A stretch of 64,000 nt of DNA from Holophagales bacterium UBA5066 (GTDB lineage Bacteria > Acidobacteriota > Thermoanaerobaculia > UBA5066). Made by a program: the position numbers and the translations under genes. The stretch spans positions 51,697 to 115,696 of the forward strand of contig DIAY01000212.1 in the NCBI GenBank assembly GCA_002414905.1. The letters run 5' to 3'. The notes beneath the pieces are model-generated. The model worked only from the letters and a program-made list of their open reading frames with translations. It made no database searches and had not been told where the DNA came from. Shown here in pieces: positions 1 to 64,000 of the stretch; position 1 is the stretch's first letter; every line of letters begins with the position of its first letter.

Positions 1-859
1 GGAAGACGCGGCTCCAGAGGTCGATCGCCTCCTGCAGGTGGCCTCGCGCCGCGGCATCGTCGCCCTGCCGGAGGAACTGCGAGATCCGCGGGTCCACGGT
101 GGCTGCGGGACCCGGGGCGGCCGCCCGGTCAGGGAACGAAAGGACGTTCGCGGCGGGAGCGAACGGATCGGCCGGGGGCTCGGCGGAGCCGAAGAGGTCG
201 GACGGGGGTTCCGATAGCGCGAAAGGGTTCGCCGGGGGTGCGATTTCGGGCTGGCCGGCCGAAGGGGCGGGCGATGCAAACGGATCGCCGGCGGGAAGCG
301 GAGCTCCGGAGAACGAGAGCTCGGGAGCGGGTGCACTGAAGGCGTCGGCTCCGGGTGTGTCGACACTGAAGCCTGGGGAGGAGAAGGGCGCCAGAGGAGT
401 GGACGGCGGCGGGGCGACCGGGGCGGCGGGCGCGAACGGGTTGGGACCCAGGTCCTCGAAGCCGAGGTCGTCGAGTCCGGAGCCGCTGGCCCCGAACGCA
501 TCGGGGGCGGGAGACGGGGCTGCGGGAACGGCCCAACCGGCGGCGGGCGTGGCCGGGCCGGGAGCCGAGGGTGCTGCCGGAGCGGGCGCCGGATGCGAAG
601 GTGCCGGCGCCGAGCCGAAGGCGTCGAACTCCGCGAGGTCGACCACGGTTCCTGCGGCGACGCCTCGAAGGGACGACAGGAGGCGCCGCGCGGGCGCGAA
701 ACGCGCGTCCATCTTCAGGATGAAGTCACAGCCGAGCAGAGCGTCCTCGTTGCGGCCCGCCCGCGCCATGTCGAGCGTGTGACGGAACGTCTGGAGGACC
801 TTCTCGCGGGCCTCGGCGGAGAGGGAGGGACTCCCCTGGTAGGAAACGGGCTCGGGCAT
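1..859 (-). CDS. hypothetical protein, N-terminal 286 codons (Pro/Ala-rich linker with DPF/NPF/LF motifs, TPR-like C-terminal region runs off the window start)
   Basis: Minus-strand ATG at 859..857 translates to MPEPVSYQGSPSLSAEAREKV... and stays open to position 1. It is divergent from the formiminotransferase gene with ~100 bp between them. It is absent from the ORF track only because it runs off the edge. Confidence 0.45.
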   Translation of the reverse strand, partial: MPEPVSYQGSPSLSAEAREKVLQTFRHTLDMARAGRNEDALLGCDFILKMDARFAPARRLLSSLRGVAAGTVVDLAEFDAFGSAPAPSHPAPAPAAPSAPGPATPAAGWAVPAAPSPAPDAFGASGSGLDDLGFEDLGPNPFAPAAPVAPPPSTPLAPFSSPGFSVDTPGADAFSAPAPELSFSGAPLPAGDPFASPAPSAGQPEIAPPANPFALSEPPSDLFGSAEPPADPFAPAANVLSFPDRAAAPGPAATVDPRISQFLRQGDDAAARGHLQEAIDLWSRVF

Positions 860-961
860 GGGAACCTCTTCGAACCCAGCGTAACAAGGCGCCTTTCCGG
901 CGGCAAGCGCCGTGCGCCCCCCGCGGTAAGATCTTCGGTCCGGAAGCGGGGAGGAAATCCG

Positions 962-1882
962 ATGACCACACTGATCGAATGCATCCCGAACATCAGCGAA
1001 GGACGCCGCCCGGAAGTGGTCGCGGCCATCTCGAGCGCCGCGGTTTCGTCCGGTCCGGGAGTTCTCCTTCTCGACTGGACGTCCGATGCCGACCACAACC
1101 GCTCCGTCCTGACCTTCCTCGGGGACGGTCCGGCCCTGGTTCGGGCGATGGAGGCGATGGTCGCCGAGACCCTCGTCCACGTCGACCTGACGAAGCACGA
1201 GGGGGCTCACCCGCGGCTCGGGGCCGTCGACGTCATCCCGTTCGTCCCCATTCGGAACGCAACCACCGCCGACTGCGTCGCCCTGGCGAAGGAGCTCGGC
1301 GCCCGGCTCGCACAGAAGCACGGCCTGCCGATCTACCTTTACGAGGACGCCGCTTCGAGCGAGGTCCGCCGGAACCTCGCCACGATCCGCAAGGGCGAGT
1401 TCGAGGGGCTCGGCGAGAAGATGAAGAACCCCGAGTGGAAGCCCGACTTCGGGCCCGACGCCCCGCACCCGACGGCGGGTGCGACCGTAATCGGGGCACG
1501 CTCGCCTCTCATCGCCTACAACATCAACCTCGGGACGGCCGACCTCTCGATCGCTGACCGGATCGCGAGGTCGATCCGCCACCTCTCCGGCGGCTACCGG
1601 TTCGTCAAGGCGATGGGCGTCAAGCTCGAAGCGCGCGGCATCGTCCAGGTCTCCATCAACATGACGAACTACGAGAAGACGCCGCTCCACCGCGTCTTCG
1701 AGACGGTGCGCTCGGAGGCCGAGCGCTTCGGCGTGCCGGTCGTCGGCTCCGAGATCGTCGGTCTCGTCCCGCAGGCGGCCCTCGTCGGCACTGCCGAGCA
1801 CTACCTGAGGCTGGAGTCGCCCGCTTCGCCGCAGGTCCTCGAGAACAAGCTTCTCGACGTCGCCTTCGCCTCTAAAGATTAG
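962..1882 (+). CDS. glutamate formimidoyltransferase (FtcD N-terminal domain family)
   Basis: The internal ATG in ORF 593..1882 gives a 306-aa protein MTTLIECIPNISEGRR...SVLTFLGDGPALV...NINLGTADLSIADRIARSIR, which is typical formiminotransferase sequence. The upstream part of the ORF is Arg-rich junk. Confidence 0.85.
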   Translation: MTTLIECIPNISEGRRPEVVAAISSAAVSSGPGVLLLDWTSDADHNRSVLTFLGDGPALVRAMEAMVAETLVHVDLTKHEGAHPRLGAVDVIPFVPIRNATTADCVALAKELGARLAQKHGLPIYLYEDAASSEVRRNLATIRKGEFEGLGEKMKNPEWKPDFGPDAPHPTAGATVIGARSPLIAYNINLGTADLSIADRIARSIRHLSGGYRFVKAMGVKLEARGIVQVSINMTNYEKTPLHRVFETVRSEAERFGVPVVGSEIVGLVPQAALVGTAEHYLRLESPASPQVLENKLLDVAFASKD

Positions 1883-1939
1883 AGGATCAGGGAGCCGGTC
1901 AGGCGGTTCGGGGACCCCGGGCGCGAGCCCGGGGATGCC

Positions 1940-2836
1940 TCAGCGGAACTGACGGAGCAGGACCCACGCCCCGGCGGCGATGAGGAGCGCGAAACCGAGG
2001 AGTCCAGAGCGGCCTCCTGCAGGAATCGCTGCAGCGCCGTCGACAAGGAGTCCAGCGGCTGCAGAGGCGTCCTGTGCAGCCAGGATGGTGCCGTCAGGAG
2101 CGAGAAGAAGCAGATCGTAGGCGCCGGGACCCGGGGCCGCGCCAAGCAGGACACCCGAAAAAGCATTCGTCGCGGTGCTGAACGGCTGCGAGAGGACGCA
2201 CGGGCCAGTGTATGCGCCGCCGATAAGGGCCGCCGTCGAGGGGGCGGAGCCGGGCAGCTGAGGACGGGGGGGAAGCGGAGTGCTCGTCATGACAGCCGGG
2301 GGCGTGTCCGTCGGGGTACTGACGGGCGTGAACGTCGGGGTGTCGGTGGGGGTGTTCGTCGGGGTGCTGGGGATGGACGTCGGGGTGTTGGGGATGGACG
2401 TCGGGGTGTTGGGGATGGACGTCGGGGTGCTGGGGATGGACGTCGGGGTGCTGGGGATGGACGTCGGGGTGTTGGGGATGGACGTCGGGGTGCTGGCGGG
2501 CGTGAACGTCGGCGTCGGAGTGGGAGTCAGGCCTCCGATCGTCCAGATGCCGTTGGGGACGAGGCAAAGCGTGTAGGTGAGCGCCACGTCGGGCACCGTA
2601 CCTGCCGCGACGAGGGGCTGCCCGGGGATTGCTGTCGTCACGTTCAGCCCGACGGCAGCCGGCGGGGCCGGAGCCAGGGCCTTGATCGGGGCTTCCGCCC
2701 GCACGTTCGGCACAGGTGCCCTCGCGGAGTCGCGATCCTTCGCCGCGGCGGGGAGGAGCGCGACGAGGAGCACCGCCAGTACGGCGGAACCACACATCCG
2801 AACGCTCCCTTGCGTACCAGAGACTCTCGCAGTCAT
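1940..2836 (-). CDS. secreted Pro/Thr-repeat protein with a C-terminal hydrophobic anchor
   Basis: ATG at 2836 has GGAGGG 6 nt upstream. The product has a signal-peptide-like N-terminus (MCGSAVLAVLLVALLPAAA), about 7 tandem TPTSIP[N/S] heptads and a C-terminal TM-like tail ending LLRQFR. Confidence 0.55.
   Translation of the reverse strand: MTARVSGTQGSVRMCGSAVLAVLLVALLPAAAKDRDSARAPVPNVRAEAPIKALAPAPPAAVGLNVTTAIPGQPLVAAGTVPDVALTYTLCLVPNGIWTIGGLTPTPTPTFTPASTPTSIPNTPTSIPSTPTSIPSTPTSIPNTPTSIPNTPTSIPSTPTNTPTDTPTFTPVSTPTDTPPAVMTSTPLPPRPQLPGSAPSTAALIGGAYTGPCVLSQPFSTATNAFSGVLLGAAPGPGAYDLLLLAPDGTILAAQDASAAAGLLVDGAAAIPAGGRSGLLGFALLIAAGAWVLLRQFR
2361..2486. repeat. 21-bp tandem repeat (GGGGTG[C/T]TGGGGATGGACGTC), 6 near-perfect copies with degenerate flanking copies, coding for the TPTSIP[N/S] heptads
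   Basis: Direct reading of 2341-2520. The copies differ only at one C/T position. Confidence 0.7.
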
Positions 2837-2888
2837 CGTCCCCTCCGGGCGGTTCTGATTTCCAATTTCGAAATCCCGTCTCGAAATC

Positions 2889-4214
2889 TTAGTCACCGCC
2901 GCACTCTTTTGCAACATAGGTGAGTTCGACGAGGAGGGCCTCGTTTCTTGAGATCGACACTTCAAGCGCGAAGAGCCTCGCGACGCGCACCGGGTCTGGA
3001 CGCAGCTCGGCCCGCCGGGCGAGAGCCTGGGCGAGAGTCCGCGCGAGGGCCTCCGGTGATCCGCTCTCGCAGAGGAGGCCGTAGCCGGTTTCGCGGACGA
3101 CGACGCGGGCTCCCGGTATGTCGGTCGCCACCACGGGCGTTCCGGCGAGCATCGCCTCCACCTGGACGAGAGCCATCATCTCGGAGCGGCTCGGCAGAAC
3201 GAAGACGTCGCACATCGCGTGGAAGTCGGCAATCCGCTGCGGATCGCGCAGGAGGCCGAGGAGGACGAGCCGGTCCCCCGCGGCGGAGACGAGCGGACGG
3301 CACTTCTCGAAGAAACGTTCGTAGTGGACGTTCGCTTCGCCCGCGAAGACGAGGTGGACGTCGGGGACGAGGGTGCGAAGGAGCGGGAGGGCCTGGAGGA
3401 GGACGTCGAAGCCCTTTTCCGCCACGAACCGGCCGGCAAAGCCGACGACCGTCTTTCCCGTGAGACCGAGATCGGCCCTCCAGCGGGCCGAGGCGGCACG
3501 GTCCGGCTCAGGGAGGGTGACCGGGGGTGCGATCGCCCGGACCTTCTCGCGGACGCCGCCAAGGAGGCGTGACGAGGCGGCGTAGTCGTCGCTGTAGGTC
3601 GTGACCGCGTTCGCGAGCCGGGCCGCGCCCGCGAGGACGACGAAGGCGGCCGCCTCGATTGCCTTCTCGTGAAGGCTCGGCGGCATGACGACGTCCCCGT
3701 GATGGGTCATCAGGACGGGGACGCCGAGCGCCCGGGCCAGCCCCGCGACGAGAAGCGCCTCGGGGAGAGGCGTGTGGATCTGGACCACGTCGGTCTCGCA
3801 GAGGAGCCGCGCGAGGGCGAAGGGGAGGCCGGGAACGATCATCCCGCGATTGAAGCCGGCAAGCGGCCGGAGCCTCACCACACGGACCCCGTCGACGACT
3901 TCCTCGCGAGAAAGCGACGGCTCGTGACGCGTCGTCAGGACGGTCACCGTGTGTCCCCTCCGGGCCAGACCTTCAGCCAGCCTTACTGCGTGGACGGTGA
4001 GGCCCGTCCAGTGCGGGCGGTAATAGGTGAGGACGGAGAGGATGCGGATGGCGCGCCTCGAAGTGCCGGGAGGGTAGCAGGCGGGCGGACCCGTTACTCT
4101 CTGCGCGTTGAAGAACGATCCCTTGCCCGGACCCGGACCTGGGCACGACAGCGGGTACGGCCACGGGCTCGATCGCGAACGCCTCGAGGCGTTCCTCGCG
4201 GACGACCTCGACAT
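2889..4214 (-). CDS. glycosyltransferase family 4 (GT4)
   Basis: ORF 2889..4415 contains RILSVLTYYRPHWTGL...GHTVTVLT and a C-terminal EX7E-like region FVLPSRSEMMALVQVEAMLAGTPVV. The start is uncertain: ATG at 4214 (MSRSS) leaves a ~55-aa N-terminal extension, and no canonical start codon lies just before the conserved RILSVL. Confidence 0.75.
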   Translation of the reverse strand: MSRSSARNASRRSRSSPWPYPLSCPGPGPGKGSFFNAQRVTGPPACYPPGTSRRAIRILSVLTYYRPHWTGLTVHAVRLAEGLARRGHTVTVLTTRHEPSLSREEVVDGVRVVRLRPLAGFNRGMIVPGLPFALARLLCETDVVQIHTPLPEALLVAGLARALGVPVLMTHHGDVVMPPSLHEKAIEAAAFVVLAGAARLANAVTTYSDDYAASSRLLGGVREKVRAIAPPVTLPEPDRAASARWRADLGLTGKTVVGFAGRFVAEKGFDVLLQALPLLRTLVPDVHLVFAGEANVHYERFFEKCRPLVSAAGDRLVLLGLLRDPQRIADFHAMCDVFVLPSRSEMMALVQVEAMLAGTPVVATDIPGARVVVRETGYGLLCESGSPEALARTLAQALARRAELRPDPVRVARLFALEVSISRNEALLVELTYVAKECGGD

Positions 4215-52366: not shown

Positions 52367-53650
52367 ATGACCTAGGACTTCTCAGACGCGCCGAACGCAC
52401 CGTTCACGTACTCCTTCGCCTGGTCCGGGCGATCCTCGAGGAAGTGAACGTACTGCCGATAAGTGAAGGCGGGAGAACTGTGGCCGAGCTGGTCGGCCGC
52501 GAAGGCGACGGGTGCTCCCTGCGTCAGAAGGCGCGAGGCGTAGAGGTGGCGGAGGGCATGCGGCGTGAAGTCGGCCCCTTCGACGGCCTTGAGTGCGGGG
52601 ACCCAGTGGCGCTGGACGAAGTTCCGATCGTTTAGGACCGGAGGTCGTTCGGCCCGCGGCTCCTTCGTCGTCGGGTCCTGCGCCAATGCAGCGTCCGTCT
52701 CCTTCCTAAGGGTGCGGGCCACCGGGAAGACCCATGGATCCGAACGAACAGTCTTCCCCGATACCTGTTGAGCGCGATAGGCCTTGAGTCTCTCGGCGAG
52801 GCCGTCCGGAATCACGATGCTCCGTCTTCCGCGCTCCGTCTTCGGCGTGCCGAGCTTCCCCGTCACCTGGTCGATTGACCGCGCTACGGTGATGCGACGG
52901 CCATCGAGGTCAACATCGTCCCATTGAAGCGCGAGGCATTCGTTGAGCCGCATTCCCGTAAAGAGCAGAACCTCTGCCGCGGCCCGCGGACCGGGGGCCT
53001 TGATGGCCCCGACCACCTTGCAGGCCGCTTCGTAAGAAGGGACTCGGACTGGATTCGAACGCTTCGGCGGGAGCTCGAGGAGGGTCGCCGGATTCTGGGC
53101 GAGGATCCCTCGCTTCACGGCGTCCTGAAGGACTGAACGAAGGAGGAGAAGCGCCTCGCGCTTCGTCTGGCCCGAAACCTTCCGCTCGATGAGCGTGGCC
53201 CGAAGGCGGCTCAGGCGTTCGTAGGTGACATCGCGGAGGGGCCATTCGCCGAGGGCGGGAGCGAGATGCTGGCGGTAGCGCGACCGCGCGGCTCGTATCG
53301 TCGAATCCTTTCGTCCGACCATTGCTTCGGGGAAGTAGACCTTCTCGACGAATTCCGTGAAGCTGACTCGCGACGCAGAGCGGTCCACGAGGGGTGCGCC
53401 CCCGTCGAGTTCGAGGCTCCGTTTCTCCCGCGCCTTTACAGCCTCTTCGATGGTAGAGAAGGCTCCGACGAAGGCGCTCTTACCGTGGTGGTAGACGAAC
53501 GTGTCGAAGGTTCCGTGCGGCGTCATCCAGACGCCGGTCGCAACCTTTATCCGTCTGAGCGGGGCCTCCTTCGGGAGCTTCTGCGCGAGTTTCCAGCCAA
53601 CCTTCTGACCTCTCGGCATGCCCCGATTCTATCGTAAATCCCTAGGTCAT
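52367..53650. repeat. 10-bp inverted repeat ATGACCTAGG (52367-76, overlapping the int stop) / CCTAGGTCAT (53641-50, 22 nt upstream of the int ATG) bracketing the integrase gene
   Basis: Both copies were read directly. Each one is embedded in CCTAGG palindromes. Confidence 0.4.
52372..53619 (-). CDS. tyrosine-type site-specific recombinase (phage integrase family)
   Basis: 415 aa. An N-terminal SAM-like/AP2-like region is followed by a catalytic domain carrying the R...HALRH...R...Y motifs (HALRHLYASRLLTQGAPVAFAADQLGHSSPAFTYRQYVHF). Confidence 0.9.
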   Translation of the reverse strand: MPRGQKVGWKLAQKLPKEAPLRRIKVATGVWMTPHGTFDTFVYHHGKSAFVGAFSTIEEAVKAREKRSLELDGGAPLVDRSASRVSFTEFVEKVYFPEAMVGRKDSTIRAARSRYRQHLAPALGEWPLRDVTYERLSRLRATLIERKVSGQTKREALLLLRSVLQDAVKRGILAQNPATLLELPPKRSNPVRVPSYEAACKVVGAIKAPGPRAAAEVLLFTGMRLNECLALQWDDVDLDGRRITVARSIDQVTGKLGTPKTERGRRSIVIPDGLAERLKAYRAQQVSGKTVRSDPWVFPVARTLRKETDAALAQDPTTKEPRAERPPVLNDRNFVQRHWVPALKAVEGADFTPHALRHLYASRLLTQGAPVAFAADQLGHSSPAFTYRQYVHFLEDRPDQAKEYVNGAFGASEKS

Positions 53651-53699
53651 ACCCAAAGCTCGGGTGCGGAGCCCGTCTCGCCGGAGCAGCAGGGAGGGG

Positions 53700-54212
53700 C
53701 TAACTCTTCGGGGTCGGCAGCGCAGCGGGCGAAGCCGTTCGAGTAACTGGCGGAGGGGACACAATGAAGATCGTTGGCTTCCCTGAGATCGACGCATCGA
53801 GCGCTTGGTATCCGTTCCCGACGTCTCGGAGGGGGGCGACCCGAACCCAAGACAGCTGATCAGGCAAGAGACCCACCGTCTTCGTCCACCGCGTTCCTGC
53901 CTCCGTCTGGAGGTAGCGAAGGATGTCTTCCCGGCTATGGAAGAACTCGCGAGACCACTCGGTCGGCTCCTCCTTCGCTCCGATCCTCCCGAGATAGGCG
54001 CCCTCCGCAGCACGAACGCGCGCCTTCTCATCCTCCTGCCAGCGGAGAGTGTCGAGGATCGGAGAAGAGCCTTCAGGAATCGGTACGGTTCGCGGAGCAG
54101 CAGAGGCGTGGGCAGCGGCCGGCGAAGGCCTCTTGGCACTGACCGTCGTTCCGACGCCGACTCCGACTCCCAGGGCGGCAAGCACCCACGCTACGACCTC
54201 TCGTCCTTGCAT
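53700..54212 (-). CDS. hypothetical secreted protein
   Basis: 170 aa with an N-terminal hydrophobic signal. The overlapping ORF 53642..54181 is Arg-rich junk. Confidence 0.4.
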   Translation of the reverse strand: MQGREVVAWVLAALGVGVGVGTTVSAKRPSPAAAHASAAPRTVPIPEGSSPILDTLRWQEDEKARVRAAEGAYLGRIGAKEEPTEWSREFFHSREDILRYLQTEAGTRWTKTVGLLPDQLSWVRVAPLRDVGNGYQALDASISGKPTIFIVSPPPVTRTASPAALPTPKS

Positions 54213-54324
54213 CGTCTCCTCCTCACGCCGTCCTTCGCTCGACAGGAGCGGCGACCGCTGATTGTGACTGACGGTGCCTGACTGAACCCGGACACGCAGG
54301 CGCGAGTGAGACTGTCGGGGGCGG

Positions 54325-55077
54325 CTATGCGGCTGAGAGCGTTCTCGCCGCCCGGCGAATCAATCCGCCAAACGACTCATTCTGGACGTAGTCCTCGAGT
54401 GCATGGCCGCCGGGAAGCTGTCGATAGCAGGCGGCGCGGCGTCCGTTCTCCAATGCACGGATCGTCGCCACGTTCGAGTGAAACACATTGTCGTTTCGGT
54501 TGTAGTAGAGCGTGATCGGCTCGGGCCAGGAAGCAGGGACGGCGACAGCCTGGTCGAGGCCGTCCGCTCCGAGAAGACCGGCGCCGAAGCACTCCGCGTC
54601 GGAATGGTGTCCGGCGAGTGCGAGCGGGGCGCCCCCGGAGTACCCGGCGGTATAGCGCGGCAGGCCCCGCATGGCGGGAAGTGACTCGAACACGGCAGAG
54701 AGAAGCTCGATTCGAACATGCGTGTTCCAGCGATCCGCGGCGGCAGGGTCTACCGGGAAGCGAAGGAACGGGACATCAAAGGGAGCCGTGACGTACACGA
54801 ACCCAAACGAGTGCGTCCGCTCGAGGGATTCGAGAGTGCGATCGAAGATGGGGACGATCGTATTGAGGCGTTCCAAGTAGACCGACTCCGAAACGCCGGA
54901 ACCCCCGAAGAAGAGCATCAGGAAGGTGGGCTTCGGGCCGGCCACGAACGCGTCGGCGTGAAAAGGTCGTCCAAGAACCAGGCTCTCGTTGCGGATCTTC
55001 TGTCGCTCCACGAACGAAGCGTAGCAGCGAATGCCAGCTACCGCCTGTAGCCGGAGCCGACCGCGGCCGAAGCGCAT
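54325..55077 (-). CDS. alpha/beta-hydrolase-fold esterase-like protein
   Basis: A GxSxG-like nucleophile GYSGGAPLALAGH lies in an a/b-hydrolase-like context, with a C-terminal GGHALEDY. Confidence 0.5.
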   Translation of the reverse strand: MRFGRGRLRLQAVAGIRCYASFVERQKIRNESLVLGRPFHADAFVAGPKPTFLMLFFGGSGVSESVYLERLNTIVPIFDRTLESLERTHSFGFVYVTAPFDVPFLRFPVDPAAADRWNTHVRIELLSAVFESLPAMRGLPRYTAGYSGGAPLALAGHHSDAECFGAGLLGADGLDQAVAVPASWPEPITLYYNRNDNVFHSNVATIRALENGRRAACYRQLPGGHALEDYVQNESFGGLIRRAARTLSAA

Positions 55078-55080
55078 ATG

Positions 55081-55863
55081 TCAGTCGCCACCGTTGTCGC
55101 CGGGCGTGGCGGGTGTGGGCGGCCTGTAGACAGGCTGACGATAGGAACGTCGCTCGTAGTGCGGCATCGCGAAATGCGGCATCGTGAAGTGCGGCCGCGT
55201 GTAATGAAATCTTGAGTAGCGCGGCCCATCGGGCTCTGCCGCCTGTTGTCCTGAGACGCCTGACGTCGAGTCGGACCACGAGCGCGGATGATCGACGCGA
55301 GAAGGCGCCTCGGGAATATCGACGCTGGGACGGACGGTCTGGCGCACCTCGTCCCTGACCGCCTCGGCCCGCCGCGCTCCCTCGGAGATGGTGTCGTCGT
55401 AGACCGTTCGGCGAGGGTCGGGGCGTGGCGAGGCGGGTCGCTGGCGCTGAGCGGCGCGGGCGCGCCGGAGTACTTCAGAGATGTCGATGAAGGGCTCGTC
55501 GGTTTCCGAAGGAGCACTCGAGCGCGGTCTGCTCGGCGCGGGTGGCGCCGCTGCGGCTCGGCGAGCGCGGGCATCAAGATAGGCGACGCGGTTCGGTCCG
55601 GTGAGCATCTGCCGGGCACGAACGAGTAGCTCGAGCGTCTCCCGATCACCCTTCCCGTCATTCAGATCCGGATGTACTGCGCGAATCCGCTTCCGGAAAG
55701 CGGAGAGGATGTCTGCATGGGAGGCGGTCTCAGGAACGCCGAGCACAGTGAAGTAGTCGGCGCCCCTGCGGAGATCGTCGTGGTATTCGGGAGTCTTCGT
55801 AGGACGGAGAGGGGAGTGGAGGGGGGAGGCAAGAAGGTACGGCGAATCGAGCGGCGACGTCAA
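55081..55863 (-). CDS. J-domain (DnaJ-like) protein with a low-complexity C-terminal PHF/PHY-repeat tail
   Basis: The J-domain is DYFTVLGVPETASHADILSAFRKRIRAVHPDLNDG with the HPD motif. The C-terminus reads RFHYTRPHFTMPHFAMPHYERRSYRQPVYRPP. Confidence 0.65.
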   Translation of the reverse strand: MTSPLDSPYLLASPLHSPLRPTKTPEYHDDLRRGADYFTVLGVPETASHADILSAFRKRIRAVHPDLNDGKGDRETLELLVRARQMLTGPNRVAYLDARARRAAAAPPAPSRPRSSAPSETDEPFIDISEVLRRARAAQRQRPASPRPDPRRTVYDDTISEGARRAEAVRDEVRQTVRPSVDIPEAPSRVDHPRSWSDSTSGVSGQQAAEPDGPRYSRFHYTRPHFTMPHFAMPHYERRSYRQPVYRPPTPATPGDNGGD

Positions 55864-56087
55864 GCCGCACTGGAACGGAGTGCGCCTCGCGGTCGTTTAG
55901 GAATGACGAATCCAGATGCGTCGAAACGAATCAACACGACATTTCGTCGCCGGCGAGATCAGGGGTCGCAGGTCGCCCCGCATCGCGAGAAAGTCCCGGA
56001 TGAGGCTGGGCAAAGCCTGTGGTCACACCCCCGCGGCGGGGCTCGGGACGCCGATCTTTCTCAACTGAATCCTTGACCCATACGGCC

Positions 56088-56504
56088 ATGACGATCCATC
56101 AATACGCTCTCCACGAGCGGCTCGAACGGATGTTCGGGCGAACTCCGGAGTGGTCCGCCCTACACGCTGCGCGGCAGTCGTGCGGGCAACTCTCGCCGGA
56201 GGACGCGTATGTCCATCTTTCGCGGCTCTTCGTCGCTTTCCAAGGGTGGCGCTTCACGCGTCTCCCGAGAACTGCGGGGCTCCCGCAGACGCCAGAAGAA
56301 CGGCGAGAGAGCTTCTTCCGAGCGCTCGATGAAGAGCGCCACGCCCGGGAGGTCGTCCCGGAAACCTACGAGCCATCGCTCGATGAGCGGCCGTCGGCAG
56401 TGGGCGAAATGGCGCCATACCTCGAGCTCAACCCCGAACTGGAAGAAGCCCTGGAAATTGACTACCCGGGCCTCTCCCATCGGCGGACTGCTCGCGTCGT
56501 ATGA
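56088..56504 (+). CDS. hypothetical protein
   Basis: An open frame with plausible composition (MTIHQYALHERLERMFG...). There is no domain call. Confidence 0.3.
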   Translation: MTIHQYALHERLERMFGRTPEWSALHAARQSCGQLSPEDAYVHLSRLFVAFQGWRFTRLPRTAGLPQTPEERRESFFRALDEERHAREVVPETYEPSLDERPSAVGEMAPYLELNPELEEALEIDYPGLSHRRTARVV

Positions 56505-56815
56505 GCGGCCGTTTTGCAGAGGTGCCCTCGCGCCGTTCCTGTCCGGAGTGCACCGGAGCAGGGCGAGGCGAAAACCCTCTCTACTATTACGTATCGGACG
56601 AGGGAGATCTTTCATTCTTCCAGGTTCGATGCTCGAACCGACGGGACTGCGGGTACGTCGAAACCCGCGCAGGGGCATTCGGACTCGCGACGAGGAGCGC
56701 GCTCCTTAAGTCGCGCAAGACCGTCCGCCGCCTCGTCGTCGCGGCCGTCGCCGAGGTGATCGCTCTGATCACCATCGGGATGACCCTCACGGTCGTCCTC
56801 GCGCAGGGTCGCTAG
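56501..56815 (+). CDS. small zinc-ribbon protein with a C-terminal TM helix
   Basis: CPEC...C..C cysteines plus a hydrophobic tail VVAAVAEVIALITIGMTLTVVLA. Its start overlaps the upstream stop. Confidence 0.35.
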   Translation: MSGRFAEVPSRRSCPECTGAGRGENPLYYYVSDEGDLSFFQVRCSNRRDCGYVETRAGAFGLATRSALLKSRKTVRRLVVAAVAEVIALITIGMTLTVVLAQGR

Positions 56816-56927
56816 AACAGAAACAGAAACACACCCACCGGGAGGCTTGCCCAGCTCTCCCCCTTCCCTCTCGGAGCGTCCACCCCGAGAGCAGATCAGC
56901 TGCCGTCACGGCAGAAGGAGGTGCAAC

Positions 56928-57848
56928 GTGCGTCCAGTCGAACCCACCTGGGACGAAATCGCCGTCCGCTACCGCCTCACGCTCCGGCTCCAGGGAAGGC
57001 AGCTCCGCGGCCGATGCCCGCTCCACGGCGGGCAGAACCCGACGGCGTTCGTCGTCGAGCCTACAGGGGGCGTCTTCTTCTGCCACGCCTGCGGACAGGG
57101 GGGCGGCATCGGGACGTTCGTTCGCCTCATGGAGGGCGACACCGGCGCCGATCGAGGCGCCCGGGTCCCTGAGGATCTGCGCACACGTCGGCTCGGGCCA
57201 AGCCCCCTCGAGCTCCGCCGACTGGCTCGTCTTCGAGACGTCCTCCTCCATGGCCTCCCCGAAGTCGAGCCGGTCTACCCGCGCGACGGCACGCACCCGT
57301 ACTTCGCCTCGCGCGGCGCTGCCTCGTCGACAGTTTCGGCCCTCGGGGGAGGCGTCTACACGGGACCTGGCCCCTACCACCGTCGCGCGGTCTTCCCTGT
57401 CTGGACCCCCGAGGGAAAGCTCGTCGGTCACATCGGACGCGCCATCGATTCTGGCGTCGAGCCGCGGTACCTCTGCGAGCGGGGCTTTCGGAAATCGCTC
57501 CTGCTCTACAACGAGCAGTCGGGCCAGGCGACGGACACGGTGTTCGTCGTCGAGGGGATCTTCGACGCCCTCGCAGTGATCCAGGCCGGCTTCGCGAACG
57601 TCGTGGCCCTCCTCGGGGCGGTGGCCTCGCCGTACCAGCTCGCGGCGCTGTCCTCTTCCCGGCACGTCGTCTCGCTCCTCGATGCCGACGATGCTGGTCG
57701 CCGTGGGGCGACGCTGCTCCGGGAAGTCCTCGGGAGGAACGTGACGGTATGCGATCTCGTGCATGGCGATCCCGGGGACGCGATGGCGGATCGTATTCGG
57801 TACGCGCTCGCGGGAGCCGTCACCGGTTCGCCTCTGCGCCCCGGTTGA
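56928..57848 (+). CDS. DNA primase-like protein (CHC2 zinc finger + Toprim), no helicase domain
   Basis: A GTG start with AAGGAGG upstream. The zinc finger is CPLHGGQNPTAFVVEPTGGVFFCHACGQGG and the Toprim motifs are VFVVEGIFDALAV...LLDADDAG. Confidence 0.75.
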   Translation: MRPVEPTWDEIAVRYRLTLRLQGRQLRGRCPLHGGQNPTAFVVEPTGGVFFCHACGQGGGIGTFVRLMEGDTGADRGARVPEDLRTRRLGPSPLELRRLARLRDVLLHGLPEVEPVYPRDGTHPYFASRGAASSTVSALGGGVYTGPGPYHRRAVFPVWTPEGKLVGHIGRAIDSGVEPRYLCERGFRKSLLLYNEQSGQATDTVFVVEGIFDALAVIQAGFANVVALLGAVASPYQLAALSSSRHVVSLLDADDAGRRGATLLREVLGRNVTVCDLVHGDPGDAMADRIRYALAGAVTGSPLRPG

Positions 57849-58046
57849 AGATCGGCCTCTCTCTGGACGACCACACTCGGCGCTGGCACAATGCTCTTTC
57901 GACTTCGTGCCTGACGCACTCGTCAGGCCCCGTTCGAAGAGGCGTTCACGCGATCCCGGTCATCAGCCGCTCACATGCCTCCACACTCTCGGGATCTGGC
58001 TTCGATATTCGGCGAGGATTGACCACGAGAGACCAGGGCCGAGGAG

Positions 58047-61000
58047 ATGTTCATGTCAATCGGAACCCCCGTCCGCTTCGCCGCTACGCGCGTGCGAGGT
58101 CTCCTTTCCTGCGGCCTAGCCCTCGCCCTTCTGGCAGCAGGGGACGCTCGCGGAGCGTGCACCCTGACCTGCTCCGGGAGCATCGTCATGAATGCCGTTG
58201 CCGGAGATCAGGTCCCTTTCGAAGCCATCGCTACCGCGACCGGCTGCACCGGCTCCCCTTCGTTCCAGTGGAACTTCGGCGACGGCACAACCTCAACCCT
58301 CCGGACCGGAACGCATGTCTTCGCGAACCCCGGTCTCTATCCCGTCACCCTGTCGGTCTCGGTTCCCGGCGCGAGCACCTGCACCAAGGCGGGAACCGTC
58401 TCCGTCAGCTACGTCCCGCTTCCCGGGGACGATGTGACTGTCAGCACCTTCGCAGGCAGGACCGGGGTGGTTGGAAAGGACGACGGTCCAGCCGAGTTTG
58501 CGACCTTCAGCGACATCTACGGGGTCGCTCCTGACGCAGTGGGAAACATCTTCGTGGCCGATTTCAACAACACGATTCGAAAGATCAGCACCGCGGGGGT
58601 CGTGACGACGGTCGCAGGGAGGGCTGGGTCCAGCGGATACGCTGACGGTCCAGCGACGCAGGCCAGGTTCCACAACCCGCGCGGCATGGTTTTCGACGTC
58701 AACGGGATCCTCCTCGTCGCCGACTACTTCAACTGCACGATACGGAAAGTTACGCCTGATGGACAAGTGTCGACCTTCGTCGGCACCGGGAAGAGCTGCG
58801 GGGCCAAGGATGGATGGAACAGCGAGGCCCGCTTCAACAACCCCAATGGACTCGCGCTCGGTCGCAACGGATTCCTCTACGTGGCTGATTCCGGGAGTCA
58901 CACTATTCGCGTCGTCTCCCCCGACGGCAAGGTCATGACCCTCGCGGGGCAGGCTGGGGTATCCGGCAACGCCGACGGCTCCGCCTTCTCCGCCCGTTTC
59001 AACTACCCGCACAGCCTGTCGTTTGACGACGCGGGGAATCTCTACGTCTCCGAGGGTACCGGGCGCCGCATCCGAAGGATCTCCCCCGATGGGGTCGTCA
59101 GTACCGTCATCGACATGAGCACGAGCCGCTACGGGGAGTTTGCCGCATACCCCGAGGGAATCACCGTGGCTCCCGACGGCGCCCTCTACATCGTCGACTG
59201 GGCCAGGTACGCCGTCTTCAAGCTGCCGCTCGGCGACACACTTCGTGTCCTCGCCGGCCTCCCCGGCAGCCGGGGCACCAGCGACGGGACCGGTCCAGCC
59301 GCCCGGTTCTACATGCCGACCGCCATCACCTGGAGCCCCAAGCACGGCGCACTCTTCGTCGCCGACGCCTCGAACCACACGATTCGCAAAATCGCTCCGC
59401 CGCCGTCGCCGGTCGCCGACCTCGTCGTACGAGGCGGTGCGAACCCCGGCCCGCGTCTCGTGGGCTCCGAGACGACCTGGATGCTGACGGTGACGAACGA
59501 CGGCCCGACGTCCGCCACGGAGTCCACCCTCGAGGTGGAGGTGCCCTCGCTCTTCACGGGCGTGTCCGGTCGGGTATCGACGAGCGGAAGCTGTACCGGC
59601 GCCCCTTCCCTCCGGTGCACCCTCGGCGCGCTTGAGCCCGGGGCTTCGGCGACGGTCACGGTCGGCGGCATCGCGAGCGCCGCCGGGGTGGCTCGCCTCC
59701 GGGCACGTGCGCAGAGTTCCACGACCGAGAGTGACCCGGCCACCAACGTCTTCGAGTCCATCGTTGAGGTGCTCTCGAGTACCCCCGGGCAGATGCGGCG
59801 CGACTTCTTCGTCCCGGTGGTCCTCTCGTCCTCGGGGGCGAACGGTTCGTACTTCACGACTGAGCTCACCGTCACGAACCGGGGCACGCGCGCGGTCACG
59901 GCGCTCTTCAGCTACACCGCCGCCGCCGGAGGCGGGTCCGGAGCCACCACCATCCCCGAGGTTGTCGGCGCCGGCCTCCAGACGGTCGTGCCGGATGCCA
60001 TCACGTTCCTGGCCGAACGCGGCCTGCCGATTCCGACATCGGGGAATCGGGTCGGAACGCTCCGGGCCTCGTTCGACGGACTGGACGATCCGCTGTCCGT
60101 CTCCGTGACGGCGCGGACCACCACCGCGGTCTCGAGCCCGGCCGGCCGCGCTGGGCTGGCGTACAGCGGCGTACCGCCGAGCCGACTCCTCACCGGCACG
60201 GCGATCATCCCCGGTCTCCGCTACGACGCGGCGAACCGCAGCAACCTCGCGATCCAGAACGCTGGAGATCCCGCCGACGGTCCCGCGACGTTCTCGGTCA
60301 CGGTCACGTCCGGCGACCCCGCCGTTCCCTTCGAGAAGGTGCTCCCGCCGCTCGTCCTCGAGCCGGGCGGGTTCCAGCAGTACTCCCCGGGTGACATGGG
60401 GCTGGCCTCCGGCTTCCAGGGCGTCGCGCGAGTGGACCGCGTCTCCGGGACCGCCCCGTTCTTCGCGTACGGCGTTGTGAACGACCAGGGCACGTCCGAC
60501 GGGTCCTTCATTCTCCCGATCGTCACGAACCGTGCCGGAGATGTCACGGGGTTCACTGTCCCCGTCGCGGTTGAGACCGCGGCCTTCTCGACCGAACTCG
60601 TGCTCTCGAACCGCGGGACTTCCGCCCTGGCGATCACGATTCGGCTCGCCTCGACGTCGGGGGTCGACGTCTCTGCGAACTTCCAGCTGCTCCCGAAGGA
60701 GCAGCGGATCTTGCCGAAGGTCGTGGATGCACTCCGTCAAGCCGGCGCCTCGATCCCTGGGCAGTCGATCGTCGGACCGCTCTTCGTGACGCGAACGGGA
60801 GGCGGCAGCCTCTCATCGCTTTCGGTCGGCGCTCGCACCTCGTCGGCCGGCGGTGCCGGGCGCTTCGGCCTCTACTACGAGGCGATTCCGTATGGGACCG
60901 CCGCAACCGGGTCGCTCTCCCTCAGTGCCCTTCGGCAGGACGCAGACAACCGAACGAACCTCGCCTGCGTGAACACGGGGGAGCACGATGGTGGCCCGAT

Positions 61001-61262
61001 CGACCTCAAGCTCGAGATCTTCGACGGCACCACCGGCACCCTGACCGCGACCGATCAGAAAGGCTTCCTCGGCATGTCCGCGCAGGGCTTCGTGCAGCTC
61101 GATTCCGTCCTGAAGACGCTCGCGCCGTCAGCCTCGAACGGGTATGCCCGCGTGACACGGACGAGTGGCGGCAACCCATTCCTCTGTTACGCGGTTATCA
61201 ACGACGGCGGGATTCCGCGGTCGCGCACTGACGACGGTGCCTTCATCGCGGCCGACGAGTAG
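58047..61262 (+). CDS. large secreted surface protein: N-terminal NHL-repeat beta-propeller, central DUF11-like domain, and three copies of an uncharacterised ~150-aa C-terminal repeat
   Basis: 1071 aa with a signal peptide. NHL-type repeats such as GVAPDAVGNIFVADFNNTIRKIS occur about 6 times. The C-terminal repeats are DFFVPVV...TELTVTNRGT, SFILPIV...TELVLSNRGT and NRTNLACVNTG. Confidence 0.75.
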   Translation: MFMSIGTPVRFAATRVRGLLSCGLALALLAAGDARGACTLTCSGSIVMNAVAGDQVPFEAIATATGCTGSPSFQWNFGDGTTSTLRTGTHVFANPGLYPVTLSVSVPGASTCTKAGTVSVSYVPLPGDDVTVSTFAGRTGVVGKDDGPAEFATFSDIYGVAPDAVGNIFVADFNNTIRKISTAGVVTTVAGRAGSSGYADGPATQARFHNPRGMVFDVNGILLVADYFNCTIRKVTPDGQVSTFVGTGKSCGAKDGWNSEARFNNPNGLALGRNGFLYVADSGSHTIRVVSPDGKVMTLAGQAGVSGNADGSAFSARFNYPHSLSFDDAGNLYVSEGTGRRIRRISPDGVVSTVIDMSTSRYGEFAAYPEGITVAPDGALYIVDWARYAVFKLPLGDTLRVLAGLPGSRGTSDGTGPAARFYMPTAITWSPKHGALFVADASNHTIRKIAPPPSPVADLVVRGGANPGPRLVGSETTWMLTVTNDGPTSATESTLEVEVPSLFTGVSGRVSTSGSCTGAPSLRCTLGALEPGASATVTVGGIASAAGVARLRARAQSSTTESDPATNVFESIVEVLSSTPGQMRRDFFVPVVLSSSGANGSYFTTELTVTNRGTRAVTALFSYTAAAGGGSGATTIPEVVGAGLQTVVPDAITFLAERGLPIPTSGNRVGTLRASFDGLDDPLSVSVTARTTTAVSSPAGRAGLAYSGVPPSRLLTGTAIIPGLRYDAANRSNLAIQNAGDPADGPATFSVTVTSGDPAVPFEKVLPPLVLEPGGFQQYSPGDMGLASGFQGVARVDRVSGTAPFFAYGVVNDQGTSDGSFILPIVTNRAGDVTGFTVPVAVETAAFSTELVLSNRGTSALAITIRLASTSGVDVSANFQLLPKEQRILPKVVDALRQAGASIPGQSIVGPLFVTRTGGGSLSSLSVGARTSSAGGAGRFGLYYEAIPYGTAATGSLSLSALRQDADNRTNLACVNTGEHDGGPIDLKLEIFDGTTGTLTATDQKGFLGMSAQGFVQLDSVLKTLAPSASNGYARVTRTSGGNPFLCYAVINDGGIPRSRTDDGAFIAADE

Positions 61263-61349
61263 CGAGGGAAACGCTTCCTCGTACCTCCGGGTCGGAGAGG
61301 TCGGGTCCCGAACAGCGGCGGCAGGCCTGGGCGAGGGGAGTCTGCGTCG

Positions 61350-62864
61350 CTATGAGCGGTTGACTCCGGTGCCACGTTCATCGAGCACAATCGCGCCCTC
61401 AGCTTTCACCCGTCTGCGCTTCTCGTGCTCCACCGACCGGAGCCCCTCGCAGCAGTAGAGGATTGCGGCCCGAACCAGACGGAGCAACTGGAATGTCCGG
61501 CGCTCCAGGTCGTCGTCCGCGATCGTGTCCCACGGCCACCCGCGTCCACCTTCAAGCGTCCCGTGGAGGACGAGCGAGTGTTGAAGATCATTGCGCGATG
61601 CACGCAGATCGTTGAACCGGCCATTGTCCCTCTCGAAGCTCGCGGACAGGTACATGAGCGCGCGGAGGCCGACCGAGTCTGGCCAGGCCACGCTCGAGCG
61701 GAAGGCCAGCACCTTGTTCGCCTTCGTGAAGAACAACTTGTCGAAGTAGAGGCCAGCCGCATCGATGCCGAGGCGGGCGTTCCACAGGTCGGCGATGCGG
61801 TCGAGAACGCCATACGACTCCCGAAATGCTGCAGCGAGGAACGCGGAGCGCCGCGAGAAGGCCAACCCAGTGACGGGCCAGCTCAGGATTTCGACGGGAG
61901 CGGTCGCCTGCGCGCGCGAGAGCCAGAGGAGGCTCCGTGCGCCGATAAAGCCCTGAAGCAGGACGTTTACCTCGGCCGGGGTGCGGTCGGCCTGCTCCTT
62001 CGCTTCGGGACCCACGAGAATTCCGGCGAGCGGGTACCGGTCGTAGGCCATCGGGCTCTCAACGCGGCAGCCTGAGCAGAGGTTGAGGCCAAGTCCCGAC
62101 TTCCAGACGAACGCCTCTAGCTGCTCGTCCCACGGGTCGTGTTCCAGAAGCAGGCTCTCGACCGTGCGCGCGGGGTCCATGTCGGGGTGCGGGTGGGGCC
62201 TCACCTCGTCGAGAAGTCGCTGTGCCCGCGTGATGTTGCTCGCGAGCCGATCGCGGAACGGAAGGTCGTCGACTTCGAACACGAGCGCTCGCTGGTACGC
62301 GGCGACTGCGTCCTGGAGCAGGTCGGGGTAGCGGTTGTAAAACGCCCAGACTCCCCAGAGCATGTCGCCCAGGGCGGCCCAGCCCCTCCCGTGTTCGGGG
62401 TGTCGGGTGAGCGTCTCGCGGGCGAGGTCGAGTCCCTCAATCGCACGCCCGGCGCGGAGGAGCGCGGAGGCGAAGTTGAAGGACGGCTCGGGCCGCACGT
62501 CTCCCGCGGCATCGATCGCCTCGTAGTACAGCGAGAGTACTTCGCTCAGCGCTGGATCGGGGGTAACTGTAGTGACCACCTCGGGGGAGTCAGGGAGGAG
62601 CCGCGAAAGCCCGTTGGCGAGGTTGTAGGTCAGCGAGGTGCCGGGTGCCAGCCCGCGGGCCTGGCGTGTCAGGATGACACCCTCTTCGACGAGGCCCAGC
62701 GCACCGGTGTAGCTGCCGATGTCGATGAAGACGGCCCCGACCTTCCCGAGAACGGCCGCTTCTGGCCCAGGGGAGACGAGCCATCGGCGTGCTTCCTCCT
62801 CGGCGGTTGTTTGATCGCCTCGGCTAACGAGGTCCGTGATCTCCCGGAACGACAGGTAGCTCAT
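61350..62864 (-). CDS. TPR-repeat + C-terminal HEPN-domain (Rx4H; LA2681-like) protein, putative defence RNase/toxin
   Basis: 504 aa. The helical N-terminal part is TPR-like, and the C-terminus carries RASRNDLQHSLVLHG (R-x4-H). Its start codon overlaps the hsdR stop by 4 nt. Confidence 0.6.
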   Translation of the reverse strand: MSYLSFREITDLVSRGDQTTAEEEARRWLVSPGPEAAVLGKVGAVFIDIGSYTGALGLVEEGVILTRQARGLAPGTSLTYNLANGLSRLLPDSPEVVTTVTPDPALSEVLSLYYEAIDAAGDVRPEPSFNFASALLRAGRAIEGLDLARETLTRHPEHGRGWAALGDMLWGVWAFYNRYPDLLQDAVAAYQRALVFEVDDLPFRDRLASNITRAQRLLDEVRPHPHPDMDPARTVESLLLEHDPWDEQLEAFVWKSGLGLNLCSGCRVESPMAYDRYPLAGILVGPEAKEQADRTPAEVNVLLQGFIGARSLLWLSRAQATAPVEILSWPVTGLAFSRRSAFLAAAFRESYGVLDRIADLWNARLGIDAAGLYFDKLFFTKANKVLAFRSSVAWPDSVGLRALMYLSASFERDNGRFNDLRASRNDLQHSLVLHGTLEGGRGWPWDTIADDDLERRTFQLLRLVRAAILYCCEGLRSVEHEKRRRVKAEGAIVLDERGTGVNRS

Positions 62865-64000
62865 GGGGCTGCTTCCGCGGCACTTGGTCCCGGATCGCCT
62901 CCTCCCCGGATTCGGTCGTACACGTCCTTGAGGAGCGTCTTCGCGACGAGCTTCTGGAAGTCGGCGTCGCCCATGAATCGGCCGAAGAGTTCCTCGTTCT
63001 GGTCCATCCGGTCGATGAAGATGCCCTCGAGCGCCTTCTCGAACACGAAGCGGAAGTCGTCGAGGTTGTTGACCTTCGCGGCCTCCTGGAGATCCTCGCG
63101 GGAGGAGGCCTCCTCGCGGATCTGGTCGAAGAAGAGTTCATCTGCCGGACGGAAGGTCGTTCCGAATCGCTCGTTCAGGACGTCGATGAGGCGCGAGAGT
63201 TCGACCTCCTCGTCCTTCGCCTTTCCCGTCCCGACCTCGGTCGGCCCCTTGAGCACCCCGCCCCCGCCGGCGTTGAGCGCGATCGTCCCCTCGCTGATCT
63301 TCTGGAGCCGGTAGAACTTCAGCTGAACGTCGCCGTCGAAGTCGTAGACGGCGCTCCGGCGACGCGGGAGCTCCTTGGCGAGGTGGCGGAGATAGGTGTA
63401 GAGCTTCTCGAGGTCGGTGTCCTGGAACGGGATCACCTGGGAGAGGAATGCGTAGAGGTTCCGGAACGACGTGAGGAGCCCGCGGAACTCCTCTTGGCGC
63501 TCCTCGTCCAGGGCGTTGAACCGGCCCACGGCCGGGGCGAGGCAGGCGTAGATCTTCGCGAGGTCTCCGGTCGACTGGCGCTCCGTGGGCTTGAAGTACG
63601 TTCGGCAGAGCTCCTCGACCTCGGCGGTGAAGTAGACCTGGAGGGCGTCGAGGTTGGCCTGGAGCTCGTAGAGCTGGTGCGGGTCCGCCTCCTCGCCGAG
63701 GAGCGGCTGCTCGTAGTAGGGCTGGAAGGCGGCGTGGATGTCCTCCGCCTCGTTCACGAAGTCGAGGACGAAGGTGTCGTCCTTCCCGGGCGCGGTGCGG
63801 TTGAGGCGCGAGAGGGTCTGCACGGCCTGGACCCCGTCAAGGCGCTTGTCGACGTACATCGTGTGCAGGAGCGGCTGGTCGAAGCCGGTCTGGTACTTCT
63901 CGGCGACGAGGAGCACCCGGAATTCCTCTCCCGCGAAACGCTCGGGGAGCTCCCGCTCGCGGATGCCGCCGTTCATCTCGACCTCGGTGTACGTCGTCCC
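62861..64000 (-). CDS. hsdR: type I restriction enzyme R subunit (HsdR), C-terminal part; N-terminus beyond the window end
   Basis: The frame is open to the window edge. It carries helicase motif VI-like QTLSRLNR and the typical VLLVAEKYQTGFDQPLLHTMYVDKRL region. Confidence 0.75.
   Translation of the reverse strand, partial: GTTYTEVEMNGGIRERELPERFAGEEFRVLLVAEKYQTGFDQPLLHTMYVDKRLDGVQAVQTLSRLNRTAPGKDDTFVLDFVNEAEDIHAAFQPYYEQPLLGEEADPHQLYELQANLDALQVYFTAEVEELCRTYFKPTERQSTGDLAKIYACLAPAVGRFNALDEERQEEFRGLLTSFRNLYAFLSQVIPFQDTDLEKLYTYLRHLAKELPRRRSAVYDFDGDVQLKFYRLQKISEGTIALNAGGGGVLKGPTEVGTGKAKDEEVELSRLIDVLNERFGTTFRPADELFFDQIREEASSREDLQEAAKVNNLDDFRFVFEKALEGIFIDRMDQNEELFGRFMGDADFQKLVAKTLLKDVYDRIRGGGDPGPSAAEAAP

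Follow-up and report, generated by a model that had tools for sequence, protein, structure and literature searches.

Ribonucleases (RNases) with a HEPN domain that are encoded beside restriction-modification (RM) systems have been proposed as second-line suicide defenses since 2013, and few of them, such as PrrC, were experimentally tested. In the survey of Anantharaman et al. (2013; PMC3710099) the RM-linked HEPN genes, which fall into 16 clades, were proposed to act by a PrrC-like logic. Table 1 of this survey lists the LA2681 HEPN family with a fusion to tetratricopeptide repeats (TPR), or in an operon with TPR, and LA2681 is not among the families marked there as RM-linked. An E. coli LA2681-family protein appears in the DefensePredictor supplement (PMC13092281) as a “putative novel defense gene,” with no validation seen there, and literature searches on PF18733, HEPN_LA2681 and TPR-HEPN yielded nothing beyond these two sources. 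Here, we describe an LA2681-family gene at the end of a 64,000-nucleotide (nt) stretch of DNA from Holophagales bacterium UBA5066 (GenBank assembly GCA_002414905.1, contig DIAY01000212.1, positions 51,697 to 115,696; the window in the following), the start of which overlaps the stop codon of the type I restriction gene hsdR. An earlier note, made from the letters of the window, had proposed that the encoded TPR-HEPN protein is a PrrC-like RNase kept latent by the RM system.

The protein belongs to the LA2681 family and has the N-terminal TPR array that is usual there. Its open reading frame (ORF) occupies 61350..62864 on the minus strand, stop codon included, and encodes 504 amino acids (aa). 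The Pfam profile PF18733 (HEPN_LA2681) matches residues 295–473 (61446..61982, minus strand) with 62.2 bits at a Pfam cut-off of 27 (E 5.6e-17), and the match spans profile positions 10–199 of 204. For the N-terminal part, the TPR models in Pfam give weak, sub-threshold matches, and TPRs were found over approximately residues 5–220 by a profile search of PDB sequences (best E 8e-15), which returned no solved relative of the HEPN part. The array of eleven helices comprises approximately residues 1–225 (62190..62864, minus strand) and is followed by a linker or junction of residues 226–294 (61983..62189, minus strand) with the Cys motif LNLCxxC (C263, C266) and the near-invariant D275. The Rx4H motif RNDLQH, directly read at residues 424–429 (R424, N425, H429; 61578..61595, minus strand), is the predicted RNase active site. 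In an AlphaFold2 (AF2) model calculated from a 15-sequence alignment (predicted local distance difference test, pLDDT, 83.7; predicted template modeling score, pTM, 0.87), residues 1–220 are all-alpha and are followed by the helices 289–315, 338–365, 398–409, 420–429 and 450–488, of which helix 420–429 carries the Rx4H motif. In its longer form LxLNxCxxC, the Cys motif is situated behind the TPR array and ahead of the Pfam HEPN domain and is followed by D275 (residues 258–275, window approximately 62040–62093); roughly half of the family members have both Cys residues, and others have His, Ser or Asn instead. The role of the Cys motif and of D275 may be structural, metal-binding or that of a domain latch.

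Only 15 close homologues of the protein (44–78% identity, approximately 505 aa) were found among 5.8 billion clusters, and all 15 carry a precomputed PF18733 annotation. A profile search of 1.84 billion representatives returned 2,284 clusters at E ≤ 1e-3 and 420 clusters (50% identity) at E ≤ 1e-10. Among the 150 best-scoring representatives listed, nearly all have a length of 500–545 aa and align end to end, and therefore the combination of TPR and HEPN is the norm in this family, which spans bacteria and some archaea with hundreds of 50%-identity clusters. In an alignment of 154 full-length family representatives, R424 and H429 of the Rx4H motif are each conserved to 98%, N or H is found at position 425 in 91%, and R310 (98%), D355 (88%) and, in the linker, D275 (99%) are similarly retained. 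Conservation extends to polar residues of the TPR array, i.e., N130 and R140 (98%), N84 (93%), D48 (92%), Y80 (91%) and N81 (87%). The Rx4H region is present in all full-length sequences of the close set and is missing only in the frameshift-truncated protein P0013. The TPR-like repeats and the C-terminal Rx4H motif, which the earlier note had recognized from the letters, are hence borne out by the profile searches, the PF18733 match and the intact and conserved motif. The ratio of nonsynonymous to synonymous substitution rates (dN/dS) is 0.10–0.27 across the TPR, linker and HEPN regions in five pairs and 0.15–0.26 for the 504-aa ORF, and therefore the whole protein is under purifying selection. 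Scans of sequence collections gave sparse results, with one fragment from genome contigs (a Holophagales metagenome-assembled genome, L013) and three loci from metagenome contigs, and no phage copies of the TPR-HEPN gene were found in phage GenBank (tblastn) or in IMG/VR viral contigs. On a plasmid of the archaeon Haloplanus (L040 5219–6843), the annotation gives the TPR part and the LA2681 HEPN part as separate genes that overlap; this split agrees with the survey’s remark on an operon with TPR and could equally be a frameshift.

The gene upstream of the TPR-HEPN gene is the hsdR gene of a type I RM system. The window contains its 3′ part, i.e., the last 379 codons and the stop codon of a 1007-aa type I restriction subunit (62861..64000, minus strand; the remainder lies beyond the window), and the C-terminus encoded there matches the Pfam family T1R_D3-like (3.2e-11), PADLOC REase_I (1.3e-14) and TIGR00348 hsdR (1.1e-13). 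A 14-kb wastewater-metagenome contig that is identical to the window (L001) shows the full 1007-aa HsdR (gene 459–3482) with the domains HSDR_N, ResIII, SWI2_SNF2 and T1R_D3-like, as is characteristic for type I HsdR subunits. The ATG of the TPR-HEPN gene (62864–62862) and the TGA of hsdR (62863–62861) share four nucleotides as ATGA (62861..62864, minus strand; read from the sequence), and both the overlap and the identity of the upstream gene were stated correctly in the earlier note. The overlap is kept at the closest homologous locus, L017, at which the HEPN protein is 78% and the HsdR C-terminus 86% identical. Because it is conserved in L017 and survives as an 18-nt relic in a sibling island (L037), the overlap is not a product of chance, and the translational coupling implies that HEPN synthesis depends on hsdR translation. 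The presumption that hsdM and hsdS lie beyond the window holds for hsdS, as the C-terminus of HsdS is encoded directly upstream of hsdR on L001 (PADLOC Specificity_I 3.8e-31); with the contig covered as far as hsdS, hsdM was found only in the sibling islands L037 (hsdR 96% identical) and L038. On the other side, an 87-nt spacer (61263..61349) with no recognizable intrinsic terminator separates the TPR-HEPN gene from a convergent PKD/NHL gene (58047–61262, plus strand), and this spacer folds no better than its shuffles. Promoter and terminator scans of 61000–64000 found none, a result that says nothing either way in a genome of high GC content and probably acidobacterial origin.

Compared to the described systems, the closest counterpart is the LA2681 family itself, from which the protein shows no essential difference, since it passes the HMM (hidden Markov model) cut-off and carries the Rx4-6H motif and the TPR fusion; RefSeq gives the plasmid homologues the same family name. 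The operon-tail linkage to RM, CBASS (cyclic oligonucleotide-based antiphage signaling system), Qat and AbiE systems found here is unrecorded in PMC3710099. PrrC is an anticodon nuclease that cuts the anticodon loop of tRNA-Lys on phage attack and is encoded with the type Ic RM system EcoprrI. Both PrrC and the window protein have a HEPN RNase domain with an Rx4-6H motif at the C-terminus and a gene that shares its operon with type I RM genes, and a second-line-of-defense logic is conceivable for both. However, the N-terminus of the PrrC/RloC nucleases is an ABC (SbcC/Rad50-like) NTPase whereas that of the window protein is a TPR array, the HEPN sub-families differ, and the relatives of the window gene are not RM-specific, type I linkage being found in the window and L017. 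Moreover, prrC lies inside the hsd cluster whereas the window gene trails hsdR. Thus, the architecture differs from that of PrrC, as had been claimed, but it is not new, since it is listed in Table 1 of PMC3710099; as this survey also contains the PrrC-like idea, both were already in the literature. The AbiD/F/J/U2-type HEPN genes and the CBS-HEPN protein DS-11 (DefensePredictor) likewise unite a sensor or regulatory domain and a HEPN RNase in one polypeptide and are found in defense islands, often beside RM systems. In the window protein, by contrast, the regulatory part is a TPR array whose surface is conserved family-wide, and the function is predicted from sequence. Avs/STAND NTPases with TPR-like sensors resemble the protein in joining TPR-type repeats to a nuclease effector in a defense context. 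In contrast to these, the window protein has no NTPase or oligomerization module, and its TPR array is N-terminal, short (approximately 225 aa) and under purifying rather than diversifying selection.

The genomic partners of the gene change between relatives. In the close clade the HEPN genes are co-directional with the upstream gene and follow it shortly, and a position at the operon tail is usual. Type I hsdR is upstream with the ATGA overlap (−4 nt) in the window and the identical L001 (100%) and in L017 (78% identity). Elsewhere in the clade, the upstream genes are an MmeI-like type IIG RM fusion (P0003/L008, 67% identity, +211 nt), type III mod/res genes (P0007, 63%, and P0008/L021, 61%; PADLOC REase_III 3e-126; +12 nt), CBASS genes for a patatin and a CD-NTase (P0005/L004-L007, 63% identity, +12 nt), two small unknown genes (P0004/L018, 65% identity, +34 nt), a helix-turn-helix (HTH) gene and a DUF4238 gene with an adjacent integrase (P0011, P0012 and L015, 49–55% identity, +28 to +63 nt) and, ahead of a frameshifted HEPN gene, an SNF2 helicase resembling DpdE/ZorD (P0013/L022, 57% identity, +316 nt). 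Distant members on plasmids are located behind QatABCD (Sulfitobacter), behind AbiEi/AbiEii (Roseovarius), behind a DEAD helicase in one case and before a QatA-like NTPase and QatBCD in another (both Agrobacterium), behind AAA/ATP-binding/DUF4365 genes (Paraburkholderia) and behind DUF4917 (Brucella), and those of Bacillus mycoides, Tistrella and Rhodococcus stand alone behind long intergenic regions. A trait common to the partners in the form of a superfamily 2 (SF2) helicase-nuclease (HsdR, Res, SNF2, DEAD) was considered and is ruled out, as CD-NTase, the MmeI-like fusion, DUF4238, QatD, AbiEii and DUF4917 do not fit.

The sequence of the protein does not follow these changes of partner. 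With 79% identity overall and 78% in the TPR array, the CBASS-linked P0005 resembles P0008, which is linked to a type III system, exactly as closely as the two type III-linked proteins resemble each other. Because the two pairs are equally similar, the TPR array, in which binding is presumed to take place, does not vary with the partner. Between the CBASS- and the type III-linked loci, homologous DNA begins at −9 nt and breaks off 7 nt short of the stop-codon end, and therefore only the ORF and a short leader are common to them. No mobility signature in the form of a conserved junction sequence or repeat was found at the cassette edges, where the homology stops at approximately −9 nt and near the stop codon.

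Moreover, the two genes were lost independently of each other. L037 is the same island, with the primase, two small genes and the integrase, and its RM operon is intact with hsdM, an AlbA_2/HATPase gene, hsdS and the 96% identical hsdR. At the stop codon of this hsdR the sequence “ATGAGCTGTCTGTCGTTC” corresponds to 18 nt with the first six HEPN codons (MSCLSF), followed by unrelated sequence, which shows that a deletion in L037 removed the HEPN gene together with its PKD/NHL neighbor while the RM system persisted. Conversely, the 211-nt gap ahead of the intact HEPN gene (RNDFQH) in L008 holds a stop-riddled relic of the 3′ end of hsdR, in which LFPGFMGDPDVQQLVP*TPLKQ is aligned to LFGRFMGDADFQKLVAKTLLKD of HsdR. 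From this relic it follows that the hsdR-HEPN arrangement is ancestral for the sub-clade of the window, L017 and L008 and that in L008 the HEPN gene outlived hsdR and is now found behind a type IIG enzyme. The next relative of the hsdR gene (L038, 76% identical) has no HEPN gene.

These observations make it probable that the TPR-HEPN protein is a self-contained, single-protein defense effector that is encoded at the end of the RM operon, is expressed along with it and has no dedicated latency that depends on HsdR. The Rx4H site would confer a metal-independent RNase activity, which the TPR domain might hold inactive or gate, either by a ligand or by self-contact, and HEPN dimerization, as expected from a single HEPN domain, would switch the RNase on and lead to growth arrest or abortive infection. 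In the operon hsdM … hsdS-hsdR-HEPN, co-transcription and translational coupling would then result in a layered, co-expressed defense. The comparative data argue that the position at the RM tail reflects operon hitch-hiking or layered defense and not an HsdR-mediated latency, so that at the protein level the effector would act independently of HsdR. The family-wide conservation of polar TPR residues together with the low dN/dS values favors one conserved ligand or an intramolecular contact over a fast-evolving sensor of phage proteins. The looser reading of a second layer that is co-expressed with restriction is plausible.

Several points weigh against an autonomous defense effector. The sample of contexts is small, with approximately nine independent ones from close relatives and 17 from plasmids. 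The TPR surface, being conserved family-wide and under purifying selection, is unlike that of sensors tracking diverse phage proteins. The ATGA coupling, conserved in two lineages and with traces in two more, also fits a stoichiometric HsdR-HEPN complex. For the HEPN fold taken alone, fold searches are dominated by TPR matches and the domain-only model is poor, and PADLOC (PADLOC-DB v2, 0 families), NCBIfam and PHROGs gave no match to the 504-aa protein. Finally, the literature searched contains no experimental characterization of PF18733 members, and we infer RNase activity, toxicity and phage defense.

It is improbable that HsdR, or the type I RM complex once assembled, binds and masks the protein until a phage anti-restriction factor frees it to cleave tRNA or rRNA, in the manner of PrrC. 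Such a complex would be in accordance with the coupling conserved in L017, with the L037 relic and the L008 hsdR remnant, which show hsdR-HEPN to be ancestral in the sub-clade, with the nature of TPRs as protein-binding modules and with the general proposal for RM-linked HEPN genes (PMC3710099). However, the protein has no ABC-ATPase domain and shows no match to ATPase families in Pfam, NCBIfam or PADLOC, homologues of 61–79% identity follow type IIG RM, type III RM and CBASS genes and have TPR arrays no more divergent between partners, an intact HEPN gene under selection remains after decay of hsdR in L008, stand-alone family members exist on plasmids, and the TPR residues are conserved across the family whatever the neighbors. 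A latency kept by HsdR or the RM system, as suggested in the earlier note, is therefore not upheld, given that the partners include CBASS, HTH-DUF4238, Qat and AbiE systems or are absent, that the TPR does not co-vary with them and that the HEPN gene outlives hsdR in L008. That note had itself named regular occurrence apart from RM loci, with no toxicity on expression alone, as evidence against its proposal, and such occurrence was found with CBASS, HTH-DUF4238, QatABCD, AbiE, DUF4917 and the stand-alone relatives.

Two further explanations do not invoke binding to HsdR, and we regard both as likewise improbable. The HEPN RNase might be an addiction or post-segregational killing module that retains the integrase-bearing island or plasmid and is not mainly directed against phages; the gene is invariably carried by mobile DNA, be it an island that has integrase and primase genes or a conjugative plasmid, and HEPN toxins of toxin-antitoxin systems are well known (PMC3710099), but neither a conserved small antitoxin-like neighbor nor an MNT partner is present in any context examined, the HEPN gene is cleanly lost from the otherwise intact sibling island L037, and the neighbors are overwhelmingly defense systems and not replication or partition genes. 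Alternatively, the protein might have no function alone and require the activity of any upstream system, e.g., a signal produced when the first-line system fires or fails. The upstream partners (SF2 helicase-nucleases, CD-NTase, MmeI-like fusion, DUF4238, TatD nuclease, AbiEii) share no common product or fold and stand-alone copies exist, which speaks against such a generic accessory, even though the very short upstream spacers (−4, +12, +12 and +12 nt) and the tail position in most close contexts would suit it.

An autonomous effector can be extended to a bolder proposal, which we put forward tentatively and consider rather doubtful. The LA2681 TPR-HEPN genes might be portable “tail modules,” captured repeatedly as little more than a bare ORF with a 9–12-nt leader at the 3′ ends of unrelated defense operons (type I, IIG and III RM, CBASS, Qat, AbiE), and might encode a universal back-up RNase that is triggered by one conserved ligand in the TPR groove (N81, N84, N130, R140) and not by the partner. 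If true, this would provide the first function for PF18733 and a class of partner-agnostic defense add-ons. Irrespective of this proposal, the locus and its relatives constitute a natural experiment on RM dependence, with the same gene behind at least five unrelated systems and with clean reciprocal deletions. If the protein is an autonomous defense effector, a widespread single-gene system would be added to the defense catalog, and the case would warn against inferring physical coupling from the mere proximity of genes in an operon; an inert gene, or one that is toxic and nothing more, would be unremarkable.

Some of the related loci show features of their own. In the 49–55% identity sub-clade a cassette is located beside a tyrosine integrase and consists of genes for an HTH_3/31 protein, DUF4238 (258 aa), the TPR-HEPN protein and an unknown protein of 263–270 aa (L003 2204–5774; L009 2276–5870; L015 8754–11497, the last of these without the 263–270-aa gene). 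The DUF4238 and the 270-aa cassette proteins have no PADLOC match, and the HTH-DUF4238-HEPN cassette may represent a separate system of several genes. In the SNF2-linked locus (L022 3613–4788), P0013 (391 aa) is frameshifted, and the HEPN C-terminus including LRNSLQH resumes in another frame after the annotated stop codon; the frameshift, which is either a pseudogene feature or an assembly error, is present on nine contigs. Downstream of the CBASS-linked copy (L004/L005), approximately 110–150 nt past the HEPN stop codon, the sequence ...TCATAACCCAAAGGTCGCAGGTTCAAATCCTGCCCCC looks like one half of a tRNA, from the anticodon to the T-arm. No tRNA was called by ARAGORN at this sequence, which may be the remnant of an attachment site at the island edge.

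In the window, the RM and HEPN genes are part of an integrase-bearing island (52372–64000, corresponding to L001 1–14250). It carries the integrase gene (52372–53619, minus strand), a gene for a DnaG-type Zn-ribbon/Toprim primase (approximately 56847–57848, plus strand), a gene for a DnaJ-domain protein, small unknown genes and the PKD/NHL gene (58047–61262, plus strand), which encodes a secreted-looking PKD/NHL/CLIPPER-domain protein of 1071 aa; no tRNA genes were found within the window. In L037, the PKD/NHL gene and the HEPN gene are both gone, approximately 5 kb of L001 (3497–8528) being replaced by approximately 118 nt (L037 9188–9305), and in L017 the HEPN gene is present and the PKD gene absent. 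The joint loss in L037 reflects either a functional relation or a mere co-deletion.

The RM operon itself varies between the sibling islands. A gene for a 621-aa protein with SLFN_AlbA_2 and HATPase_c_4 domains is embedded between hsdM and hsdS in L037 (2981–4846), and the interval between these two genes is a classic site of RM-embedded accessory defense genes. A similar 554-aa gene (L004 1120–2784) is found in the defense island upstream of the CBASS-linked HEPN copy. The DNA homology between L001 and L037 (93%) begins only at position 364 of L001, positions 1–363 being different, and therefore the distal part of hsdS, a target-recognition domain, differs, which suggests that these near-identical RM operons have different specificities. 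Several HsdR homologues (67–69% identical; P0191, P0193, P0207, P0208, P0213, P0223 and others) have a length of 1131–1166 aa and contain an extra domain, PF00717 Peptidase_S24 or PF20215, which judged from the added length is probably located at the C-terminus. In that case, accessory modules would have been attached recurrently to the C-terminal end in this HsdR lineage, both by fusion and by the overlapping HEPN gene.

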